Source of the DNA: Clostridia bacterium | Lineage (GTDB): Bacteria > Bacillota > Clostridia > DSM-8532 | Length of the DNA stretch: 57,129 nt | Assembly (NCBI GenBank): GCA_020047785.1 | Contig: JAIFNI010000061.1 | Location: forward strand, 1-57,129 | Direction of reading: 5' to 3' | Shown: positions 3,501-57,129 of the stretch, piece by piece | Position numbering within the stretch: the first letter of the stretch is position 1 | How the letters are laid out: the number at the start of each line of letters is the position of its first letter | Translations under genes and position numbers: made by a program | Notes under the pieces: generated by a model | Database searches by the model: none | Seen by the model: the letters and a program-made list of their open reading frames with translations, nothing else | What the model was told of the DNA's origin: nothing

Positions 3501-4775
3501 TCAAGCACGCTTCAGCAGGACAGCCTGTTCATACTCGCCCGCTTCGTCCACCCAGTCGGTTCCGACGGGAACGCCTGCCTGCTGGCAGAACATATCCCAG
3601 ACGGCCGCAAACGGAAGGGATTTGTACTCTTCCACCAAAGCCAGACGGCGACCGTAATTTCCGGCAGCTTCCGCTTCAAGCAGCAGGAAGGTGGGTTCAA
3701 GCAAGGCAATCAGAATAGCCTTCTGCGCGGCACGGGTTCCGGTAACCCAGGCCATGATGCGGTTGATGCTGCCGTCAAAGAAATCCAGCGCGAAATAGAT
3801 CCGTTCGAACGCATCGCAGCGTTTCACTTCCTGGGCCAACGAAAGGAGATCGTCGTTCAGGGTGACCACGTGATCGCTGTCCCAGCGGACGGGACGGGAA
3901 ACGTGCAGCAGAAGGGTATCCGCATACAGCAAGGTGGCGGAGATCTTGTCCGCCACACTTTCTGTCAGGTGAAAGTGTCCCATGTCGTAGCAGACAGTCA
4001 CATCGTTTTTCAAGCCATAACCCAGGACAAATTCATGGGAAGCAACCGTGTATGATTCCACGCCGATGCCGAAAAGCTTGCTTTCAAAGGCATCGACAAG
4101 GTATTTCCGGTCGTACTTGGTCAGAAGGATGAGGTCCATCGCATGCTTCATGCGCTGGCGATAGCCGAGACGATCCGCCGGCTGATCCTTCATTCCGTCC
4201 GGGAACCAGATGTTCATGACACAGGGGGTTCCGGTCTCCTTGCCAATATCGGAGGCGATGGCCCGGCAGGCTTTGACATGGTTGATCCAGAACGTGCGTA
4301 CTTCTTCATCCGCACTGGAGACCGTGAATCCGGAAGCGGCCATCGGATGCCCGAAGCAGCTTGGATTGAAGTCCACGCCGACACCAAGCTTCTTCGCCCA
4401 ATCTATCCATTTCCGGAAATGCTCCGTCTTCAGCTGGTCACGCGGAACGGAAACACCATCCGTTTCCGCATAGATGGCGTGAAGGTTCACCCGGTGCTTG
4501 CCGGGAATGAGGGAAAGTGCCTTCTCATAGTCGGCACGAAGCTCATCGCCGTTCCGCGCCGCACCGGGATAGGAACCGGTGCTGAGGATGCCGCCCGAAG
4601 TTCCGCCCGCGTCCGTCTCGAAGCCCCGCACATCATCCCCCTGCCAGCAATGCAGGGAAATGGGCTGCTTCATGATTTTCGCCAGCACGGCATCCGTATC
4701 AACACCCAATAACGCATATCTGGCCTTCGCGCCTTCATAAGCCTGTTGAATCGTCAATTCACTTATTTTTCCCAT
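3501..4775 (-). CDS. rhaA: L-rhamnose isomerase
   Basis: ORF 3501..4841. ATG at 4775 chosen (GGGAGCGAGG upstream). Contains the HCWQGDDVRGFE signature and is of RhaA-like length. Confidence 0.9.
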   Translation of the reverse strand: MGKISELTIQQAYEGAKARYALLGVDTDAVLAKIMKQPISLHCWQGDDVRGFETDAGGTSGGILSTGSYPGAARNGDELRADYEKALSLIPGKHRVNLHAIYAETDGVSVPRDQLKTEHFRKWIDWAKKLGVGVDFNPSCFGHPMAASGFTVSSADEEVRTFWINHVKACRAIASDIGKETGTPCVMNIWFPDGMKDQPADRLGYRQRMKHAMDLILLTKYDRKYLVDAFESKLFGIGVESYTVASHEFVLGYGLKNDVTVCYDMGHFHLTESVADKISATLLYADTLLLHVSRPVRWDSDHVVTLNDDLLSLAQEVKRCDAFERIYFALDFFDGSINRIMAWVTGTRAAQKAILIALLEPTFLLLEAEAAGNYGRRLALVEEYKSLPFAAVWDMFCQQAGVPVGTDWVDEAGEYEQAVLLKRA

Positions 4776-7434: not shown

Positions 7435-8076
7435 ATGAAAGAAAAAATTCTTCTGAATGAAATCCTTCTGGAAACCACCATGAGTGCACTCAGAAAAAAG
7501 AACTTCGACGTAGTCTGCGCAGATACCCCCCAGGATGCGCTGCGCATCCTGACGGAAACCATCCCGCAGGATTCCAGCATCGGTGTCGGCGGTTCACGCA
7601 CACTCGATCAGATTTCATTTTTCGACACATTCAATGTACAGCATTACCCGAATTATATAGACCGTTACGAAGCGGGCATCAGCGCAGAAACAAAGCGCGA
7701 ACGGGAAATCAGCATGCTGTCCGCGGATGTTTTCGTCAGTTCCTGCAACGGCATCAGCCAGACAGGCGAACTGGTGCTGATAGACGGGAACGGGAACCGC
7801 TGCGGCGGGATGACCTTCGGCCCCAAAAAGCGGATTGTGGTGGCCGGAGTCAACAAAATAGCCGCGGATCTTTCCGCAGCCATGTCAATGGCACAAAACA
7901 GGGCATCCGTCATGAACAATCTGCGTTTTGACACAAAAAATCCATGCACCATCACGGGCCGCTGCATGAACTGCGCGTCCACAAACCGCATCTGCAACGT
8001 CACCACCATCCTGCACCGCGCGGCGCCGGCCGGTTCCATACTGGTTGTGCTGGTCAAGGAAGACCTTGGCTTCTGA
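7435..8076 (+). CDS. LUD-domain (LutC/YkgG-like, DUF162) protein
   Basis: ORF 7276..8076. ATG 7435 follows the repeat tract and an AGGAAAGG RBS. Sequence pattern resembles lactate-utilisation LUD-domain proteins by eye. Confidence 0.7.
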   Translation: MKEKILLNEILLETTMSALRKKNFDVVCADTPQDALRILTETIPQDSSIGVGGSRTLDQISFFDTFNVQHYPNYIDRYEAGISAETKREREISMLSADVFVSSCNGISQTGELVLIDGNGNRCGGMTFGPKKRIVVAGVNKIAADLSAAMSMAQNRASVMNNLRFDTKNPCTITGRCMNCASTNRICNVTTILHRAAPAGSILVVLVKEDLGF

Positions 8077-8092
8077 AGGCCCTGACTCAGGA

Positions 8093-8251
8093 AAAGACTA
8101 CACAGTGCATAGCGCGTTGAATCATTTTCTCGGGAATGAAGGCTATAACATCAAAAAAGGGTATGTCTTTTCGAACGAGAGAGAAGTTCGGCAGAAGGAT
8201 AAAATCACCTGTCTGCCGATATACTTCGTAATGTTTTATAACAGCCCTTAA
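8093..8251 (+). pseudogene. Probable 3' fragment of a DUF4143/AAA ATPase gene (C-terminal ~50 codons only)
   Basis: Translation ...ALNHFLGNEGYNIKKGYVFSNEREVRQKDKITCLPIYFVMFYN resembles the conserved C-terminal tail (..S.L..F...PLY..) seen in the 56298.. copy. AT-rich by eye. No N-terminal part present. Confidence 0.4.
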
Positions 8252-43461: not shown

Positions 43462-44346
43462 ATGGCCATGACAAGAAAAAAGACTTCAAACAATGGATGG
43501 ATCATCGGGGTCGGGTTGGGCTTCCTGGCCATCGCAATCGTTGCAGTTCCGATGCTCACGCCCAAGGACGAGACCAGAAACTACCAGAGCGCAACGGTCA
43601 GCAAAGAAACAATTGAAACTTTCTACACATTCACAGGCAGTGTGAAAAGCCGCGATACACAAAGCGTCATGGCGGAAAAAATCCTGCAAATCAAGGAGAT
43701 CAAGTGCGTGGAAGGCGTGAAGGTTCTGAAGGGGGATGTGCTCTTTGTCGCATCCGACAAGACGGAAGTGAAGGCGAAAATCGACGGCACCATTTCCACC
43801 ATCCACGTCGAAGCGGACGAACAGGTCATGTCCGGCGCCCTGCTCTGTGACATCATCGATTTCGAGCACCTGCAGGTCAGTGTCCGGGTTGACGAATACG
43901 ACTTGGATGCCATCGCGGAAGGTGACACGATTGATGTCACCATCAATGCGCTGGACAAGGAAGTATCCGGAACGGTTGCCTCCCTTTCCGATACGGCTGT
44001 CAATCAGAACGGGGTTTCGTTCTTCACCGCAACCGTCGACCTGGAACAGGATGAGGAAATCAGGATCGGGATGACCGCCGAGGCCAAAATCCAGAACGAA
44101 GAGTCCGTCGACGCCTTGACCCTTCCCATGAAGGCCCTGATGTTCGATGAGGAAAACAATCCGTATGTCTTTACAGGAAATCAGGACGGGTCCATGACCA
44201 AGACGGCAGTCGTCGTCGGCCTCCAGAATGGAAAAACAGTGGAAGTGACCAATGGCGTCCGCGATGGTGAAACCATCTACTACAGCAGGACGAGTGATGC
44301 CGGGCAGGCGGATGCGGGCTTCATGCCTCCGATGCCGGGTCGATAG
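43462..44346 (+). CDS. Efflux periplasmic adaptor (HlyD/MacA-like membrane fusion protein)
   Basis: 294-aa ORF, GGAGG RBS. N-terminal TM anchor, barrel-sandwich/coiled pattern. Confidence 0.85.
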   Translation: MAMTRKKTSNNGWIIGVGLGFLAIAIVAVPMLTPKDETRNYQSATVSKETIETFYTFTGSVKSRDTQSVMAEKILQIKEIKCVEGVKVLKGDVLFVASDKTEVKAKIDGTISTIHVEADEQVMSGALLCDIIDFEHLQVSVRVDEYDLDAIAEGDTIDVTINALDKEVSGTVASLSDTAVNQNGVSFFTATVDLEQDEEIRIGMTAEAKIQNEESVDALTLPMKALMFDEENNPYVFTGNQDGSMTKTAVVVGLQNGKTVEVTNGVRDGETIYYSRTSDAGQADAGFMPPMPGR

Positions 44347-44357
44347 GAGGAGCCGAG

Positions 44358-45134
44358 ATGTCGAACCAAATCCTTTCCATGCAGAATATCGTCAAAACCT
44401 ACCAAATGGGGTTGGAAGAGCAAACTGTCCTGAAAGGCGTCAACTTCTCCCTGAACGAAGGGGAGTTCGTGTCCATCCTTGGACCTTCCGGTTCCGGAAA
44501 ATCCACCCTGATGAACATCATCGGCTGTCTGGATGTCCCCACCAGCGGTGCGTATACGCTCAACGGGCATTCAGTGGAGGAACTCGACGAGTGCGACCTT
44601 GCGCAGGCGAGAAACAGTGAAATCGGGTTTGTGTTTCAACAATTCCAGCTCCTGCCCCGGCTGTCCGCTTTGCAGAATGTCGAGCTTCCCCTGATTTATT
44701 CCGGAATTCCAGGCAAGGAACGCAGAAAAATGGCAGCCGACATGCTGGTGAAGGTGGGGTTGGGTGACAAACTGAAAAACCGTCCCAATCAATTGTCCGG
44801 CGGGCAGCAGCAGCGGGTGGCGATCGCAAGGGCACTGGTCACCCACCCCACCATCCTGTTGGCTGACGAACCAACCGGCGCGTTGGATCAAAAGACGGGA
44901 AACCAAATCATGGACCTGTTTCAAGCGCTGAACAAAGAGGGCAGGACCATCGTCATGATCACCCATGATGAAAAAATCGCCGCACATGGCAGCCGCGTCG
45001 TGAAAATTTTGGATGGCGAATTGTTCGAAGAACGCAATCGAATGAAACTCCTCCCAATCATGTCGGAAAGTGCCGAAGACTTACTGAACATCCCGAACAA
45101 TCCACCTACGACAGACCAGATGCAGGAGGACTGA
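44358..45134 (+). CDS. ABC transporter ATP-binding protein (MacB/LolD-type)
   Basis: GPSGSGKST Walker A, LSGGQQQR signature, LLADEPT Walker B. Confidence 0.9.
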   Translation: MSNQILSMQNIVKTYQMGLEEQTVLKGVNFSLNEGEFVSILGPSGSGKSTLMNIIGCLDVPTSGAYTLNGHSVEELDECDLAQARNSEIGFVFQQFQLLPRLSALQNVELPLIYSGIPGKERRKMAADMLVKVGLGDKLKNRPNQLSGGQQQRVAIARALVTHPTILLADEPTGALDQKTGNQIMDLFQALNKEGRTIVMITHDEKIAAHGSRVVKILDGELFEERNRMKLLPIMSESAEDLLNIPNNPPTTDQMQED

Positions 45135-45137
45135 AAC

Positions 45138-46310
45138 GTGCTGAAAGAAAGCATTCTCATGTCATGGCAAAACATCATCCACAACAAGATGCGTTCCTTT
45201 CTGACGGTGTTGGGCGTACTTATCGGCGTTGCCTCCATCATTGCCCTGATTTCCATTGTGCAGGGCGTTACGGACAACATCACCTCCCAGGTCATGGACA
45301 TGGGCGCGAACAAAGTCACCGTTCAGGCAATGGGGACCCCCTTGAAAAGAGGGCTCTCAGTCAATGACATGGATACCATCTCTTCCATCGACAACATCAA
45401 GGGCGTGTCTCCAGGCGTCAGCGGCCGAACAAGTCTCTCTCATGAAGGTCATGTCATGGAAGAGGTGGATGTGCAGGGCAGAAATGAAGTGCACTTTGCA
45501 AACACGGAGGACTTGCTCCAAAGCGGCAGAGCCATCAACCGGCTGGATGTGGACAACAGGAACCAGGTCTGTCTGATTGGCCACGATGTCGTATCCGAAC
45601 TCTTTCCGACAGAGAACCCGATTGACAGGGAAATCATCGTGAACGGCAGCACGTTTCTTGTCATCGGCACCTTGCAGGAATCAAGCGGATTTTCGGCAGG
45701 CGGGAATGATCAGGCGGTGATCATCCCCTATACGACGGCAAAAAGCCTGCTCGGGATCGGATATGTCACATCCCTCGACGTTTACCTGATGGATGAGACA
45801 TTGTCCGACACCACGACCGCTGAAATCGAATCGGCCCTGCAAGTCGCCTTCAACGACAATGAGGATGGTTACAAGGTTTCCAACATGCAGGGCATTCTCG
45901 ATACGGTCGCCGACATGACCGGAACGCTGACACTGATGCTGGCGGGCATCGCCTGCATCTCCCTGATTGTCGGCGGCATAGGGATCATGAACATGATGCT
46001 GGTGACCGTGACAGAACGCACAGCCGAAATCGGTCTCCGGAAAGCGCTTGGCGCGGAACCCAAAACCATCCAATGGCAATTTGTCCTTGAAGCCCTGTTC
46101 CTTTCCTTGTTCGGCGGCGTACTCGGACTAGTCGCCGGGGTTGCGGTTGCTTATGTCGGCAGCATGCTCATGGGCGTGAGTTTCATCGTTCCTGCCTATT
46201 CCATCGGGCTGGCAGTCGGTTTTTCCGCCATCATCGGGATTGTCTTCGGATACTCTCCCGCCCGAAAAGCAAGCAGGCTGAATCCCATTGATGCCTTGCG
46301 GAGTGCCTGA
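45138..46310 (+). CDS. ABC transporter permease (MacB_PCD + FtsX domain)
   Basis: 390-aa ORF, GTG start 8 nt after AGGAGG. N-terminal TM, periplasmic domain, C-terminal FtsX-like three-TM bundle. Confidence 0.9.
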   Translation: MLKESILMSWQNIIHNKMRSFLTVLGVLIGVASIIALISIVQGVTDNITSQVMDMGANKVTVQAMGTPLKRGLSVNDMDTISSIDNIKGVSPGVSGRTSLSHEGHVMEEVDVQGRNEVHFANTEDLLQSGRAINRLDVDNRNQVCLIGHDVVSELFPTENPIDREIIVNGSTFLVIGTLQESSGFSAGGNDQAVIIPYTTAKSLLGIGYVTSLDVYLMDETLSDTTTAEIESALQVAFNDNEDGYKVSNMQGILDTVADMTGTLTLMLAGIACISLIVGGIGIMNMMLVTVTERTAEIGLRKALGAEPKTIQWQFVLEALFLSLFGGVLGLVAGVAVAYVGSMLMGVSFIVPAYSIGLAVGFSAIIGIVFGYSPARKASRLNPIDALRSA

Positions 46311-46525
46311 ATTTTTCGTGATATGATTGTACAAACGGTATTCCGAGGTTGCGCGCCTGGATTGCGATAGCCCCTTTGCCTGAGAGCCTGACCTAATTGA
46401 CTGCTTGCAGAAATATGTATGTTTCCAGGCTCCAAATGACTTCGACTAAAAACATCAAAAGACTTCGATTAAAAGCTCCAGAACACTCCGATTACTCTTG
46501 ATGTCAATCAGGATAATATGATAAC

Positions 46526-46730
46526 ATGATTCTCGTACACAAAGTCGATTTTCGACTTTTTCATGCAAGTTGCAGAATGCAACTTGCATGCTTGTGGCGA
46601 CATTGTCGCCACAAGGCACGGAATCACATGATTCGGTGTGTGAATGACACATATTGTGCCATTCACATGCAGGATTCCAGAGGAATCCTGCATAACAACT
46701 CGCAAAAGCGAGTTGTTACACCAGAATCAT
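46526..46730. other. Multi-hairpin structured element, copy A (seven abutting stem-loops inside an 8-bp closing helix)
   Basis: Closing helix 46526-46533 / 46723-46730. H1 46541-46559, H2 46562-46590, H3 46591-46615, H4 46617-46638, H5 46640-46666, H6 46667-46693, H7 46694-46717. All read directly. Confidence 0.85.
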
Positions 46731-46741
46731 AACATGGTTAC

Positions 46742-46774
46742 ACCTCGAAAAGTCGCATTGCGACTCTTCGAGGT
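46742..46774. other. Additional 15-bp stem-loop (one A/C mismatch) between element A and the ATPase start
   Basis: acctcgaaaagtcgc (46742-46756) / gcgactcttcgaggt (46760-46774), loop att. Confidence 0.7.
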
Positions 46775-46809
46775 CCAATCATAGCATCAAGTCCTCGAGG
46801 TGCATGCTT

Positions 46810-48105
46810 ATGAAAACAAGTTACATGCAACGGATCGTTGATAGTGAATTGTCTGACCGCCTGGACGCAATGGGTGCGGTGTTGATTACTGGTCCCAAGT
46901 GGTGCGGGAAAACGACAACAGCAATCCAAAAAGCAAAAAGTGTTTTAAAAATGCAGGATCCCGACAAAACAGCAGCCTATTTGGCCACCGCTCAAACAAA
47001 ACCGTCATTGCTGTTAATCGGAGATAATCCAAGGCTGATTGACGAATGGCAAATGGCACCGGTTTTGTGGGATGCGGTCAGAACAGCAGTCGACGAACGC
47101 AATGAAGAAGGCCTTTTCATTTTGACAGGCTCAACAACGATTGATTACTCGCAAATCATGCATTCCGGTACAGGCAGGATATCCAGACTCGTCATGCGCC
47201 CGATGAGCTTATATGAATCAAAAGAATCAAGTGGAAGCATATCATTAAAGAGTTTGTTTGATGACAGAGACCTGGAAATAGATGGGATTCAATCTCCGTT
47301 GTCCATTGAAAAACTAATCTTTGCTGCATGCAGAGGTGGATGGCCATCCAGTTTATCAAAGAAAAATGATAAGGCGAGTTTGTTTGTTGCAAGTTCCTAT
47401 ATCGATGACATATGTGAAAATGACGTTTCAACAGTTGATGGGACAAAAAAAGAGCCACAAAGAGTGCGCGCATTGCTTCGGTCCTATGCCAGAAATATTG
47501 CGACTTCGGCAGCAAACACAACGGTTCTCAAGGATATGAACGCGAATTTTGATAATATGGTTGAATCAACAATGTACGCCTATTTGGATGCATTGAACAG
47601 AATATTCGTCATTGATGATATTCCTGCCTGGAGTCCTTCCATCCGGTCTAAAACATCCATAAGAGGAAAAAACAAAAAACTGTTTATTGATCCGTCCATC
47701 GCGGTTGCTGCATTAAGGTTGTCTCCGGAATTATTGATGCAAGACATGAACACTTTTGGATTCCTGTTTGAAAATTTATGTGTCAGAGACTTAAAAGTGT
47801 ATTCAAGCAAACTTGGAGGGCAAATCTCCTATTATCATGATCGTTTTGGACTGGAAGCGGATGCTGTATTGCATCTTGATGACGGCAGATATGCGCTGAT
47901 AGAATTCAAGCTTGGAAGTAGAGATATTGAAGACGCGTCAAAACACCTCCTGCAGCTAAAAGAACTGGTAATAAAATATAACCAGAACACGCAAACATCA
48001 AAAATAAGAGAACCTGATTTACTGGTAGTCATCACTGGTGGGGAACTTGCTTATTCAAGAAAAGATGGTGTGAAAATCATCCCTGTCGGCTGTTTGAAAG
48101 ACTAA
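46810..48105 (+). CDS. AAA ATPase with DUF4143 / PD-(D/E)xK-like C-terminal domain (COG1373-type)
   Basis: ORF 46804..48105. ATG 46810 lies 7 nt after GAGGTG. Walker A GPKWCGKTT, Walker B-like FILTGS, C-terminal EADAVL...ALIEFKLG nuclease-like motif. Visibly AT-richer than its neighbours (not computed). Confidence 0.8.
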   Translation: MKTSYMQRIVDSELSDRLDAMGAVLITGPKWCGKTTTAIQKAKSVLKMQDPDKTAAYLATAQTKPSLLLIGDNPRLIDEWQMAPVLWDAVRTAVDERNEEGLFILTGSTTIDYSQIMHSGTGRISRLVMRPMSLYESKESSGSISLKSLFDDRDLEIDGIQSPLSIEKLIFAACRGGWPSSLSKKNDKASLFVASSYIDDICENDVSTVDGTKKEPQRVRALLRSYARNIATSAANTTVLKDMNANFDNMVESTMYAYLDALNRIFVIDDIPAWSPSIRSKTSIRGKNKKLFIDPSIAVAALRLSPELLMQDMNTFGFLFENLCVRDLKVYSSKLGGQISYYHDRFGLEADAVLHLDDGRYALIEFKLGSRDIEDASKHLLQLKELVIKYNQNTQTSKIREPDLLVVITGGELAYSRKDGVKIIPVGCLKD

Positions 48106-48167
48106 CACAGCAAACTGGCCGGCAAAAAGCATGCTGTATTTCTTGACATGTTATTTTTCCCTCATGA

Positions 48168-48380
48168 AAGCTTGATTCTCGTGCAAAAAGTCGTTTTTCG
48201 ACTTTTTCATGCAAGTTGCGATTCGCAACTTGCATGCCTACAGCGGCGATGCCGCTGTAGGGCACGGAATCACGTGATTCGGTGTGTAAATGACACCATC
48301 GGTGTCATTTACATGCAGGATTCCTTTGGAATCCTGCATAACAACTCGCAAATGCGAGTTGTTACACCAGAATCAAGCTT
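48168..48380. other. Multi-hairpin structured element, copy B (same seven stem-loops inside a 12-bp closing helix)
   Basis: Closing helix 48168-48179 / 48369-48380. H1 48185-48207, H2 48208-48236, H3 48237-48261, H4 48263-48284, H5 48286-48312, H6 48313-48339, H7 48340-48363. Confidence 0.85.
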
Positions 48381-48415
48381 GTTTTACTTACAGAATAGCG
48401 CAGGGAGGTGGAAGT

Positions 48416-49087
48416 GTGTTCCATATTCTAGTCTGCGAAGATGAGCGTAACATCCGGAATCTGATGAGCGAGTACCTGAGGGCCGACCATTACAAGGTGT
48501 ATGAAAGCGATAACGGAGAGGCGGCTCTCTCCATTCTGGAAAGCACGCACATCGACTTGCTGATTACAGACATCATGATGCCCGTCATGGACGGGTACGC
48601 GTTGTCGAAGGAATTGCGCGAATCCGGACAGACCCTGCCCATCCTCATGATTACGGCGAAGGAAACGCTGGATGACAAGAAAAAAGGTTTTCATAACGGC
48701 ACCGATGATTACATGGTCAAGCCCATCGACATGGAGGAAATGCTGCTTCGCGTCTCCGCGCTGCTTCGCCGGTCGAAAATCGCCAGCGAGAAGAAGCTGA
48801 TCCTCGGAGACACGGTGTTCGATTATGAAAAATTCTCAGTTACGGTTCAACAAAAGGAAATCGACCTCCCCAAGAAAGAGTTTCAATTAATCTTCATGCT
48901 CCTGTCGGGTGCAGGCAGAATCTTCACCCGACAGCAGATCATGGACGAACTCTGGGGTTATGATTCGGAAAGCGACGGGCAGACGGTGAATGTGCATATC
49001 AGCAGACTGCGGGAACGATTCGGCGGCAACAGGGACTTTGAAATCGTCACGGTCAAAGGACTGGGATACAAGGCGGTCAAACTATGA
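48416..49087 (+). CDS. OmpR-family response regulator
   Basis: GTG start at 48416, 7 nt after GGAGG. ILVCEDE...ITDIMMPVMDG receiver and winged-helix VHISRLRERFG. Confidence 0.85.
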   Translation: MFHILVCEDERNIRNLMSEYLRADHYKVYESDNGEAALSILESTHIDLLITDIMMPVMDGYALSKELRESGQTLPILMITAKETLDDKKKGFHNGTDDYMVKPIDMEEMLLRVSALLRRSKIASEKKLILGDTVFDYEKFSVTVQQKEIDLPKKEFQLIFMLLSGAGRIFTRQQIMDELWGYDSESDGQTVNVHISRLRERFGGNRDFEIVTVKGLGYKAVKL

Positions 49088-50124
49088 AAAAACTGTTCTC
49101 TTCGCTGTTCATGAAGTACATGGTTACCTTCATCGGCATCATGGCCGTATCGAATGTCATCTCGACCCTCATCATGTTTTGGCTGTATGGCGTGGATATC
49201 CGTTTCGCACGGTTCATGATCAGAGAGGAAGGCATGCCTCCCATCACGAACTTTGTATCCGGTTTGGGTCTCGTTACGTTCACGATCAGCGGAATCTGCA
49301 TCTTCATCGCCGTCCGGCTGCTCGTGCGTCCCATCAGGCAGATAACCGCCGCCTCGAAGCGAGTGGCGGAAGGCAATTTCGACATCCATGTCGACGTGTC
49401 GGGTCATGACGAAATTGCCGAACTGGCCGGTAATTTCAATATCATGACCCTTGCCTTGTCGAAAAACGAATACCTTCACAAGGATTTTGTCTCCAATGTC
49501 TCGCATGAATTCAAGACTCCGCTCACATCCTTGCGCGGTTATGCCAAACTGCTGAAAAGACAGGACCTGTCGGAAGAGAAAAGACAGGAATGCCTGGATG
49601 TGCTGATCACGGAAACCGAGCGGCTTTCCCGGATGACATCAGGCCTGCTTCGCCTCTCGGAGCTCGAGCATGAGGTGATCCTGAAACACAAGGAACGTTT
49701 CTGCCTGGATGAGCAGATCCGGGACTCTCTGGTTCTGCTTCAAACCGAGTGGGAGAAGAAGCAACTGGACATCGATCTGGATCTGGAGACTGTGTTTTTC
49801 ACCGGAGACAAGGAACTGATGCACCAGGTGTGGGTGAATCTGATCGGGAATGCAGTACGGTATTCGAATCATAACGGGCTTCTTCGCATCAGGATCCAGG
49901 AGAATGATGGCATCCGGATAGAGGTCACCGACAACGGAATCGGCATGAGGAAAGAAGAGCAGGAGCGGGTGTTTGAGAGATTCTACAAGGCGGACGCGTC
50001 CCGAAGCAGCGCGGGAACGGGCCTGGGCCTGACATTGTGCAAAAAAATCATCGAGCTGCATGGCGGGACCATTTCCGTTCACAGCGAATGGGGAAAGGGC
50101 AGCACCTTCCTTGTGACGTTGTAG
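49084..50124 (+). CDS. Sensor histidine kinase (2 TM, HAMP, HisKA, HATPase_c)
   Basis: Overlaps the regulator stop by 4 nt. SHEFKTPLTSL H-box, GTGLGLTLCKKI G2 box. Confidence 0.88.
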   Translation: MKKLFSSLFMKYMVTFIGIMAVSNVISTLIMFWLYGVDIRFARFMIREEGMPPITNFVSGLGLVTFTISGICIFIAVRLLVRPIRQITAASKRVAEGNFDIHVDVSGHDEIAELAGNFNIMTLALSKNEYLHKDFVSNVSHEFKTPLTSLRGYAKLLKRQDLSEEKRQECLDVLITETERLSRMTSGLLRLSELEHEVILKHKERFCLDEQIRDSLVLLQTEWEKKQLDIDLDLETVFFTGDKELMHQVWVNLIGNAVRYSNHNGLLRIRIQENDGIRIEVTDNGIGMRKEEQERVFERFYKADASRSSAGTGLGLTLCKKIIELHGGTISVHSEWGKGSTFLVTL

Positions 50125-50199: not shown

Positions 50200-50233
50200 G
50201 AGGGTGGTTTGATGCGTCAGATGGAGAGTGGAT

Positions 50234-50755
50234 ATGTCAAGAACTTCAGAAGACTTGCTTTTCGACCTGAAGCTGGTTGATAATCTGGTGGGCAGCAGCT
50301 TTGCCGATGCGGATATGACGTTTTATTTTGCAGGAGGCTCCGCATGCATCCTGGCCGGATGGATTGACCGGACAACCAGGGACTTCGATTTTGTCGACCT
50401 TGGCTATTCATCCAAGCTCTCCAAGGTTTTGAAACTTTTGGAGCCATACGATCTTTTGACGAATTATTTCGCTGCGATTCCCAAAAACTACATGGGGCGT
50501 GCGATAAAAATTGAGGGATTCCGCTACATCTCCGTATATGTTTTCTCCAGAGAAGACATTATCGCATCAAAAATTGACCGTATGTCCGACAAAGACATTG
50601 AGGATATCAGGCTGCTGATGGTTGACATCAACATTGAAACCTTGGAAAAATGCATTCAGGAGACGCTGGACAATATCGTCTACGCAGATCGCCGGGGTCG
50701 GTACGAGCTGAATCTTGTAAACTTCCGTCACATGTTCATCAGGGAGACTGTGTGA
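50234..50755 (+). CDS. Minimal nucleotidyltransferase-fold protein (DUF6036/MNT-like)
   Basis: ORF 50228..50755, ATG 50234 after GGAGAG. FAGGSACIL...TRDFDFV fits the G[GS]-x(9-13)-DxD nucleotidyltransferase signature. Confidence 0.6.
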   Translation: MSRTSEDLLFDLKLVDNLVGSSFADADMTFYFAGGSACILAGWIDRTTRDFDFVDLGYSSKLSKVLKLLEPYDLLTNYFAAIPKNYMGRAIKIEGFRYISVYVFSREDIIASKIDRMSDKDIEDIRLLMVDINIETLEKCIQETLDNIVYADRRGRYELNLVNFRHMFIRETV

Positions 50756-50758
50756 ATC

Positions 50759-51181
50759 ATGTATAGAATTGTTCGCGCCAGCATTCAATACTATGATGAC
50801 TTCATGAAGGGGGCCGGTGCAAGGCATAAGCTTGTTGCACCCTTGTTGCTGTTGGTGAGCCTCAATCGGTTTGAAGAGGAAAGAGTCAGGGGAACTGCGG
50901 CGTATATAAATTTATGTGATCTCGTCGACCGCATGAAAGAACTCTTTATGAGCGGCCAAACCAGATATCATCATTTCGGCATGCTGCTTGGAGAACTGCA
51001 GGCTTTGGGGTTTGCCATCCCGGACATGCTTCCTTCCCACATCACGGATCCGGAGACATTGCGGGAGCAGATTGACCTCCTCCTTCAATTTCTTGCAAGC
51101 AGATACCCATATGATGCATATGACAACAAGACAGGCGTACATAATCCCAAATCCAATGAATTCATTTTTATACAGCCGTGA
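50759..51181 (+). CDS. Hypothetical helical protein, tightly coupled to the nucleotidyltransferase-like gene
   Basis: 140-aa ORF starting 3 nt after the upstream stop. No motif recognised. Confidence 0.5.
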   Translation: MYRIVRASIQYYDDFMKGAGARHKLVAPLLLLVSLNRFEEERVRGTAAYINLCDLVDRMKELFMSGQTRYHHFGMLLGELQALGFAIPDMLPSHITDPETLREQIDLLLQFLASRYPYDAYDNKTGVHNPKSNEFIFIQP

Positions 51182-56297: not shown

Positions 56298-57129
56298 TTA
56301 CAGAAGGAACGCTGCATAGAGCGGAATGCTCAGGATTGATTCCGACCAGCCGAAATTCCGGCCGGACAACCGTACGGAATAAGGTGGACGATACTTTCCG
56401 ACATAGACCCCCAGGGATTTTGATTTCGTGTTTTCAGCTGCCTTGACTTCAATAGGAATGGCTGCCCCTTCCTTCGCAACAACAAAATCGATTTCCGCCT
56501 TGCCATCGGATTCCCAGTAGAACAGCTCATAACCCTTTCGCTGCAATGCGCAGGCCACATAATTCTCGATCAGACTGCCGCGGAATCCGCTCGCGTGATG
56601 AGGCGATGGATTCAGGGACTCCGGCGTTGCCTTGGTCCGGGCGGCCAGAAGACCCACATCCGACAGATAAACCTTGAACGAGGAAATATCCATCTGAGAT
56701 GCCGGGGGAAAGAAACCATGCTCAATTTTCCTGCACATCAGGATGGTTCCGCTCGCTTTCAGACAGTCCATCGATGCACCGAAATAGCTGGAGGACGCAC
56801 CTTTTTTGTTTTGCCTTGACGACTGCAGGCATTCCGCCCAAAAGCAAATAATTCCTCAATTCGCCCATCAACGAGTCGTGAAGAAAGGATGGCAACTCGA
56901 CATGGGTCTTCCAGGCTTCCCGGATCCGCCCAACCTCTGTCTCTTTTCCACTTGCCATCAGGCATTCCTCAAAATCCATCGGGTATAATTGAAGAACCTC
57001 AACTTTTCCGACCGGAAAAGAAAACTTCTGTCGATTGACAGCGAAACCCAGCAGACTGCCTGCAGCCATCACATCCAGTTCCGGACAATCTTCGGCAAAG
57101 TATTTCAATGCCGTCAGCGCACGTTCACA
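56298..57129 (-). pseudogene. DUF4143/AAA ATPase gene, 5' end outside the window, frameshifted in a homopolymer run
   Basis: ORFs 56722..57108 (frame stays open to the window edge) and 56298..56771 join into one frame if one base is removed from the T6 run at 56802-56807. C-terminal tail ...SKSLGVYVGKYRPP...SIPLYAAFLL. Confidence 0.7.

Follow-up and report, generated by a model that had tools for sequence, protein, structure and literature searches.

Two MITE insertions flank a horizontally acquired PDC-S01-type ATPase gene between a MacB-type exporter and a response regulator gene in a Clostridia bacterium

How does a gene of foreign composition come to lie between an exporter operon and the two-component system next to it, and do the repeated hairpin elements on both of its sides have anything to do with its arrival? 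This question is raised by a contig of a Clostridia bacterium (JAIFNI010000061.1, assembly GCA_020047785.1), of which positions 1-57,129, in nucleotides (nt), are referred to here as the window. In this window, the gene of a MacB-type permease and that of an OmpR-type response regulator are separated by a 2.1-kb stretch with a single gene, which encodes an ATPase composed of the Pfam domains AAA_14 and DUF4143. A first-pass annotation, made from the sequence alone, had described two direct-oriented hairpin elements bracketing the gene, and had remarked that the layout of gene and elements resembles a cassette integrated by recombination at a resident structured site. The two elements were indeed located, one at either side of the gene, whereas the cassette proposal did not hold, for the reasons given below. 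Very probably, three unrelated events are superimposed at this locus: the insertion of a foreign module that includes the ATPase gene, and two independent insertions of a miniature inverted-repeat transposable element (MITE).

The evidence for this reading comes primarily from the sites that the two elements occupy. Copy A (46527-46729) and copy B (48173-48375) are each 203 nt long, lie on the same, forward strand, carry the ends TGATTCT...AGAATCA and are 84% identical to each other. Copy A corresponds to an insertion of 208 nt, flanked by ATAACATG at 46521-46528 and again at 46729-46736, and copy B to an insertion of 207 nt, flanked by AAGCTTG at 48168-48174 and 48375-48381. An exact look-up of the ATPase protein retrieved a 3.5-kb contig from another metagenome (L059), which contains the MacB gene, the ATPase gene and the start of the response regulator gene, and from which both elements are precisely absent. 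Its empty sites read ...AATATGATAACATGGTTACACC at the position of A and ...GAAAGCTTGTTTTAC at the position of B, each with a single copy of the target. Once the two insertions are removed in silico, L059 and the window agree without any mismatch across approximately 45950-48453 (2.1 kb), and because of this identity the insertions, or losses, must be very recent.

Outside this segment, L059 is a mosaic. It is about 10% divergent from the window at 45723-45950, shows 86% identity at the end of the ABC transporter gene (L059:1-550 versus 44823-45122 of the window), and has some 230 extra nt before a shorter MacB of 383 amino acids (aa). This mosaicism suggests that strains have recombined, or that the contig is chimeric.

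A third state of the locus was found in a haplotype survey, in which contigs from eight public runs of microbial mats and lakes were placed on the region. In one of these runs (X2), a contig of 1496 nt begins at 46702, inside the right end of A, extends through the ATPase gene to 48167 and continues at 48375, with 7 nt that fit both sides. This contig thus contains A and lacks B, and the filled B site occurs in the same run too. From L059, the X2 contig and the window, which shares its arrangement with a further locus (L056), it follows that three haplotypes exist: one with neither element (L059), one with A only (X2) and one with both (the window and L056).

These haplotypes bear directly on the proposed cassette, which supposes that site-specific recombination, acting at a hairpin site already present there and comparable to the attC site of integrons, brought in or swapped the ATPase gene and left one copy of the site at either flank. 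Structured repeats of the same orientation do bracket one foreign gene, and their hairpins are preserved by compensatory changes. However, the gene occurs with neither element and with A only, and a separate short duplication accompanies each element, as is usual for transposition but not for site-specific recombination. In addition, A is 93% identical to a copy at C56:5006-5208 and B is 96% identical to copies at C112:5222-5424 and C200:3178-3380; since each is closer to copies elsewhere than the two are to one another, A and B come from different subfamilies. The excision junctions that the first-pass annotation had suggested looking for in read data were not encountered either, as no joint or read that removes the ATPase gene was present in the eight runs. 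Two candidate joints, 46591 to 48251 and 46561 to 48267, were rejected as deletions of the gene and attributed to other copies of the element, because they include 14 nt of hairpin 3 of another subfamily, or have short sides. Taken together with the genome-wide distribution described below, these results refute the cassette by the conditions that the first-pass annotation had itself named, and leave it extremely improbable. Had the bracket been a cassette with structured recombination sites, it would have represented a novel mode of gene movement; it is not one.

The bracket could also have been formed by a composite transposon, with the two MITE copies serving as ends that carried the ATPase gene in as one unit. 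A passenger gene of foreign composition that stands between copies of a transposable element would fit such a structure, but the sequences outside the trio of A, ATPase gene and B differ, being of the TAACA type left of A and of the AGCT type right of B, and thus share no duplication, while each copy has its own matched pair. Furthermore, the gene is kept in place in the haplotypes with zero, one and two elements, and its close homologues elsewhere occur without such elements, which are limited to the genus. Transport of the gene by the two copies is therefore scarcely credible.

The genome as a whole bears on the same question. The element or parts of it are found at 58 places in the assembly (3.9 Mb, 332 contigs, 75% complete), about twenty of which are contig ends. 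With this number of places, chance alone would produce 2.3 pairs of neighbouring elements at a distance of 0.3-3 kb. The genome has 2 such pairs, and the one other than the pair in the window, on contig C89, encloses unrelated genes; the bracket layout itself is not beyond chance. The expectation that other copies of the element would flank COG1373-type genes was not borne out. Only one of the 11 loci with PF13635 (DUF4143) in the genome, the window gene, is adjacent to elements; among the other 10, a fragment lies 2.5 kb from one, the nearest element lies 8 kb from another, and the rest have no elements on their contigs. The approximately 58 copies mostly flank unrelated genes, which likewise speaks against a cassette. 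The flanks of insertions have an average G+C content (GC) of 0.48 compared with 0.55 for the genome, and the two sites discussed here are the AT-richest of all (0.40-0.42); the AT-rich, dispensable flanks of a foreign gene may simply be good targets for the MITE.

The element is a new, genus-specific MITE, being short, non-coding and dispersed, with terminal inverted repeats (TIRs) and target duplications. Its 203 nt consist almost entirely of seven abutting hairpins. Five of the six other species in the genus carry it, and 34 genomes from outside the genus all lack it. Word depth, when summed over the elements, reaches 20-50 times the level of the unique flanks. Perfect short duplications flank 10 of the 11 full-length copies in this genome, and most of 20 copies from three sister species. 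With TGATTCT...AGAATCA taken as the element, the duplication measures 4 bp (sometimes 5), always with A before and T after; in the equivalent notation GATTCT...AGAATC, it becomes a 6-bp duplication of A-N4-T. The TIRs, TGATTCTCGTGCA at the left and TGATTCTGGTGTA as the reverse complement of the right end, are imperfect and about 13-21 nt long. The MITE is presumably moved by a transposase acting in trans, and TGATTCTSGTGYA is the terminal sequence to be expected at the ends of a parent insertion sequence (IS).

Each of the two copies in the window is predicted to fold as a closing helix which encloses the seven hairpins, with free energies of -115 kcal/mol for A and -135 kcal/mol for B (z of -13 and -18 relative to shuffled sequences). 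When RNAalifold was applied jointly to 14 copies taken from three species, changes on both sides were seen to preserve 25 of the 88 predicted pairs. A search of 45500-49500 against Rfam at E<=1 returned only a chance match to HIV-1_SD.

The RNAalifold result also reveals how the element is built. In the fourth, middle hairpin, a right end and a left end, both internal, meet as GCACGGAATCA-cg-TGATTCGGTGTG, and the complete element is thus a head-to-tail dimer of two units of about 100 nt, each of the form TIR, three hairpins, TIR. This architecture explains the many half copies, and the right unit is found alone, with its own TGCT duplication, at C280:12659-12761. Several variants have been seen beside the typical copies. 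A mini version of 89 nt in G006, a genome of the same genus (L172:4258-4346), has the same inverted ends and two hairpins, and in G004 and G006 mostly the right end of the MITE, of about 45 nt, was found. At C10:3851-4062 of the genome studied here, the left arm of hairpin 3, CCTACAGCGGCGT, is repeated five times in tandem, which suggests slippage or template switching within the palindrome.

What, then, is the gene between the two copies? It extends over 46804-48105 of the forward strand and, according to Pfam and PADLOC, encodes an ATPase-nuclease of the PDC-S01 type with the domains AAA_14 and DUF4143. The protein has 433 aa, or 431 aa if translation starts at ATG 46810, as called in L056. 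It matches the PADLOC profile of PDC-S01 (PDLC04790; E 8.1e-61, residues 2-389 against positions 7-386 of the 422 of the profile) and, in both cases above the curated cut-off, PF13173 (AAA_14; E 2e-14, residues 25-138) and PF13635 (E 6e-28, residues 205-370). The Walker A motif GPKWCGKTT (G30-T38), the Walker B motif LIDE (D80-E81) and the predicted nuclease motif D353...E367-x-K369 of the PD-(D/E)xK type are all invariant in 28 homologues. An AlphaFold model of the protein is confident from residue 130 on and poor in the N-terminal part before it. A fold search with this model gave weak matches to archaeal AAA+ ATPases (2fna, 2qen) and to ORC/Cdc6, and searches of NCBIfam and of PDB sequences gave no match. 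PDC-S01 is a phage-defence candidate with validation pending; it consists of a single gene, is very widespread and has undergone multiple transfers between Bacteria and Archaea (PMC12988326), and DUF4143 figures among the PD-(D/E)xK families whose function is unknown (PMC3424549). On the basis of its domains and motifs, the window protein is thus a defence candidate of the PDC-S01/COG1373 family.

The gene is compositionally foreign and was horizontally acquired. Its GC of 0.417 and its G+C content at third codon positions (GC3) of 0.403 compare with 0.560 ± 0.030 and 0.644 ± 0.060 for the 2358 long open reading frames (ORFs) of the genome, corresponding to z values of about -4.8 and -4.0, and only three of these ORFs have a lower GC. 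The flanking resident genes have a GC3 of 0.67-0.70, typical of the genome, with 0.68-0.70 for the regulator and kinase pair. The lower G+C content relative to both flanks, which had been an uncomputed impression, is thereby put on a numerical basis. Proteins that are 57-82% identical occur in Clostridia, Izemoplasmatales, Treponema, Bacteroidales, Fibrobacter, Coriobacteriia and many Methanobrevibacter, and this spread across phyla and archaea agrees with the inter-domain transfers reported for the family (PMC12988326). At the nucleotide level (BLASTN), similarity to the closest homologues does not extend beyond the ORF. As to the means of entry, only chance 7-mers were found as border repeats around the inserted module, and gene-by-gene Pfam scans covering 38.9-53.8 kb of the window returned no recombinase domain.

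The resident genes indicate what has been interrupted. Upstream of the ATPase gene lie an HlyD-type adaptor gene (HlyD_3; 43462-44346), an ABC ATPase gene (ABC_tran; 44358-45134) and the MacB/FtsX permease gene (MacB_PCD and FtsX; 45138-46310); downstream follow the gene of the OmpR-type response regulator (Response_reg and Trans_reg_C; GTG 48416-49087) and that of a histidine kinase (HAMP, HisKA and HATPase_c; 49084-50124), all of them on the forward strand and all assigned by Pfam. The position of the ATPase gene, wedged between a MacAB-like exporter and an OmpR-type regulator and kinase pair, is therefore as first described. Most likely the response regulator starts at GTG 48416, behind GGGAGGTGG, rather than at 48290 as in the ORF list; the receiver domain starts at residue 46 of the long ORF. 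Copy B lies 40 nt upstream of this start codon. Orthologues of the exporter operon are present in relatives, and in distant exporter loci (L186, L254, L193/194/197/198/201/207, L218, L227 and L234) the orthologues of regulator and kinase begin 38-160 nt past MacB. This directly adjacent arrangement supports the first-pass view that the ATPase gene interrupts an exporter-regulator unit.

The foreign segment appears to comprise more than the ORF. Upstream of the ATPase gene, at 46430-46498 of the forward strand, there are three direct repeats of 23 nt, CTCCAAATGACTTCGACTAAAAA / CATCAAAAGACTTCGATTAAAAG / CTCCAGAACACTCCGATTACTCT. When the 250-400 nt upstream of homologue loci (L071-L150) were scanned for arrays, scored out of 40 and compared with a shuffled null, 65 of 73 loci, from bacteria and archaea, had a period of exactly 23 nt and an array of at least 2.8 units, the arrays comprising 3-8 units. 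Best scores of at least 28/40 (range 28-40) were reached in 59 cases, all at period 23, compared with a maximum of 27/40 for shuffled sequences. In the homologues, some 40-50 nt separate the end of the array from the protein match, the array often merges into a TTGACA-like hexamer, and the repeat unit differs by lineage, with a CAAA core kept in 82-100% of loci. A paralogue in this genome that is 41% identical (contig C259) is also preceded by a 23-nt array, and paralogues of 25% identity have no array at period 23. Nothing was found in the searchable literature on 23-nt arrays before such genes. From this conservation, the array is judged to belong to the ATPase gene. Its likeliest role, by analogy with the systems discussed at the end, would be that of a docking or operator site for the winged-helix domain of the ATPase itself, such that the protein would bind its own array.

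At the downstream border of the array, a putative promoter can be read by eye at 46498-46527 of the forward strand, with TTGATG (46498-46503) as -35, a spacer of 18 nt and TAACAT (46522-46527) as -10; a consensus promoter/terminator scan did not list it. Copy A is situated between the array with this putative promoter and the start codon of the ATPase gene, and lies over the putative -10, so that transcripts from the putative promoter would need to extend through 203 nt of hairpins. Further downstream, at 46743-46773 (forward strand) and upstream of the ribosome-binding site, the leader contains a hairpin, CCTCGAAAAGTCGC-ATT-GCGACTCTTCGAGG, which is also present in the MITE-free allele. This hairpin is similar to the left end and to hairpin 1 of the MITE, and may be a relic of an older MITE insertion.

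The positions of both copies raise the possibility that elements of mobile origin now act as structured RNA or DNA signals, for example as terminator, insulator, mRNA stabilizer or barrier, which would be compatible with their arrival by transposition. Their folds are very stable, the hairpins are conserved by compensation across species, A stands between the array with the putative promoter and the start codon, B stands 40 nt before the regulator gene, and a second response regulator gene, on C89, is directly preceded by a further fragment of the element. Both insertions are nevertheless polymorphic among otherwise identical strains, so neither is needed; the consensus scan lists no terminator in the elements; and compensated palindromes may be kept for transposition itself. 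We therefore consider co-option rather unlikely, although A and B may influence the expression of the ATPase and the response regulator. The fragment on C89, 47 nt of the left end at 4391-4437, precedes an OmpR-type response regulator gene at 3698-4366 on the reverse strand and thus echoes copy B; this resemblance may be a coincidence.

A bolder reading concerns the module itself. The PDC-S01 gene and the 23-nt array could constitute an autonomous single-gene mobile module, which the encoded ATPase-nuclease would itself have inserted into the MacB-regulator gap of 40-160 nt, with no other mobility gene involved; the MITE haplotypes would then be a natural experiment in which the gene is cut off from its array and promoter. 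With this, it is compatible that similarity between homologues ends at the array and the ORF, that border repeats and a recombinase were not found, and that the family moves between domains of life. We nonetheless regard it as improbable.

Superposition of three events thus remains the preferred explanation, and its most probable course would be as follows. A self-contained, AT-rich PDC-S01/COG1373 module, consisting of gene, 23-nt array and promoter, would have been inserted into the short gap between MacB and the response regulator. At a later time, MITE A would have inserted at the -10 or in the leader of the ATPase gene and MITE B in the leader or promoter region of the response regulator gene, each with its own target duplication. 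Several points weigh against this account. Without an outgroup, insertion of the elements is indistinguishable from their precise loss, and L059, which provides the empty sites, is mosaic upstream of 45950. The nearest exporter orthologues found in a metagenome scan are only 57% identical, and no ATPase-less allele was found in same-genus, family-level or metagenome comparisons; the claim that the gene was inserted therefore rests on composition and on distant synteny. In genomes of the same genus, the exporter is represented only by a MacB paralogue of 40% identity, with no syntenic ATPase-less site; in family-level relatives, the exporter was found and regulator and kinase were not within 6-8 kb; and exact-protein look-ups of MacB, the ATPase and the response regulator returned four contigs only. 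A parent element with transposase and matching ends was not found by scans for end motifs, for orphan ends and around rve genes in the seven genomes of the genus, whose assemblies are fragmented and break at repeats. Finally, it is a mild coincidence that the bracketed gene of 1.3 kb should be a DUF4143 gene.

Two further regions of the window deserve mention. Just 3' of the kinase gene, an AT-richer islet (50228-51181) contains a DUF6036 minimal nucleotidyltransferase gene (E 1e-17, with a weak AbiEii match) and, 3 nt downstream, an ORF of 140 aa without Pfam match; the two could be a toxin-antitoxin or defence pair. The first-pass annotation had also named two decayed DUF4143 genes, and had taken them as signs of a proliferating and decaying family. 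One of them is real: a frameshifted ATPase paralogue on the reverse strand at 56298-57129, which runs off the end of the window and has its DUF4143 match at 56298-56771 (E 2e-21) and the end of an AAA_14 domain in another frame at 56722-57129. The other (8045-8251) has no Pfam match and no BLAST similarity to the DUF4143 genes tested. Decay is thus supported by one frameshifted copy, and recent proliferation is not; because the closest paralogue in the genome is 41% identical, the DUF4143 copies are old or separately acquired, not the result of a recent burst.

These observations are of use beyond the locus itself. They describe a currently active, genus-specific family of dimeric multi-hairpin MITEs, which breaks up the assemblies of these organisms of microbial mats and lakes and is usable as a strain marker, and they add one more clear case of a PDC-S01 candidate gene acquired horizontally together with its 23-nt array. 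Because MITE A adds 208 nt of hairpins between the array with the putative promoter and the start codon, the three natural haplotypes offer a ready-made comparison of whether array and promoter drive the ATPase gene.

Several known systems invite comparison. The cassettes of integrons likewise consist of a promoter-poor foreign gene next to an imperfect-hairpin site, attC. The locus described here differs from them in that the ATPase gene occurs without the hairpin elements, that the elements make duplications and mostly do not lie beside such genes, and that the Pfam scans of the region returned no integrase.

The closest parallels of the element are the MITEs and mosaic repeats of bacteria, namely Correia elements in Neisseria, RUP and BOX in Streptococcus pneumoniae, ERIC/IRU and BIME in enterobacteria and bcr1 in the Bacillus cereus group. 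Like these, it is small, non-coding, intergenic and dispersed, folds strongly, and has TIRs, target duplications, partial copies and presence/absence polymorphism. It has no sequence relation to any of them, in line with the Rfam result, and its body is a row of seven different short hairpins rather than one long hairpin, organized as a dimer in which each unit has its own inverted ends. Its target is A-N4-T with a duplication of 4 bp (or 6 bp), rather than TA. REP/BIME sequences, which are moved by RAYT transposases, are short palindromes with a conserved 5' tetranucleotide and make no target duplication; the element, unlike them, makes target duplications and has inverted termini. DDE elements of the IS3/IS481 type share the TG...CA termini and a short duplication (3-6 bp) with the MITE, which serves as a lead only, since none with matching ends was found in this genome or beside rve genes in the six sister genomes.

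With regard to the array, the nearest analogies are offered by Rep initiators and their iterons, and by Orc1/Cdc6 or DnaA, whose arrayed boxes lie next to their own genes. In the ATPase family, likewise, an initiator-like AAA+ protein is encoded beside direct repeats, 3-8 in number and about two helical turns apart, and the sequence of the repeat changes with the lineage of the protein. Unlike the iteron-Rep, Orc1 and DnaA systems, the ATPase carries a nuclease domain. Within PDC-S01, finally, the window gene fits the family throughout, with the same two-domain architecture and intact Walker A, Walker B and D...ExK motifs; its local peculiarity is the MITE that stands between the upstream repeat array and the start codon.

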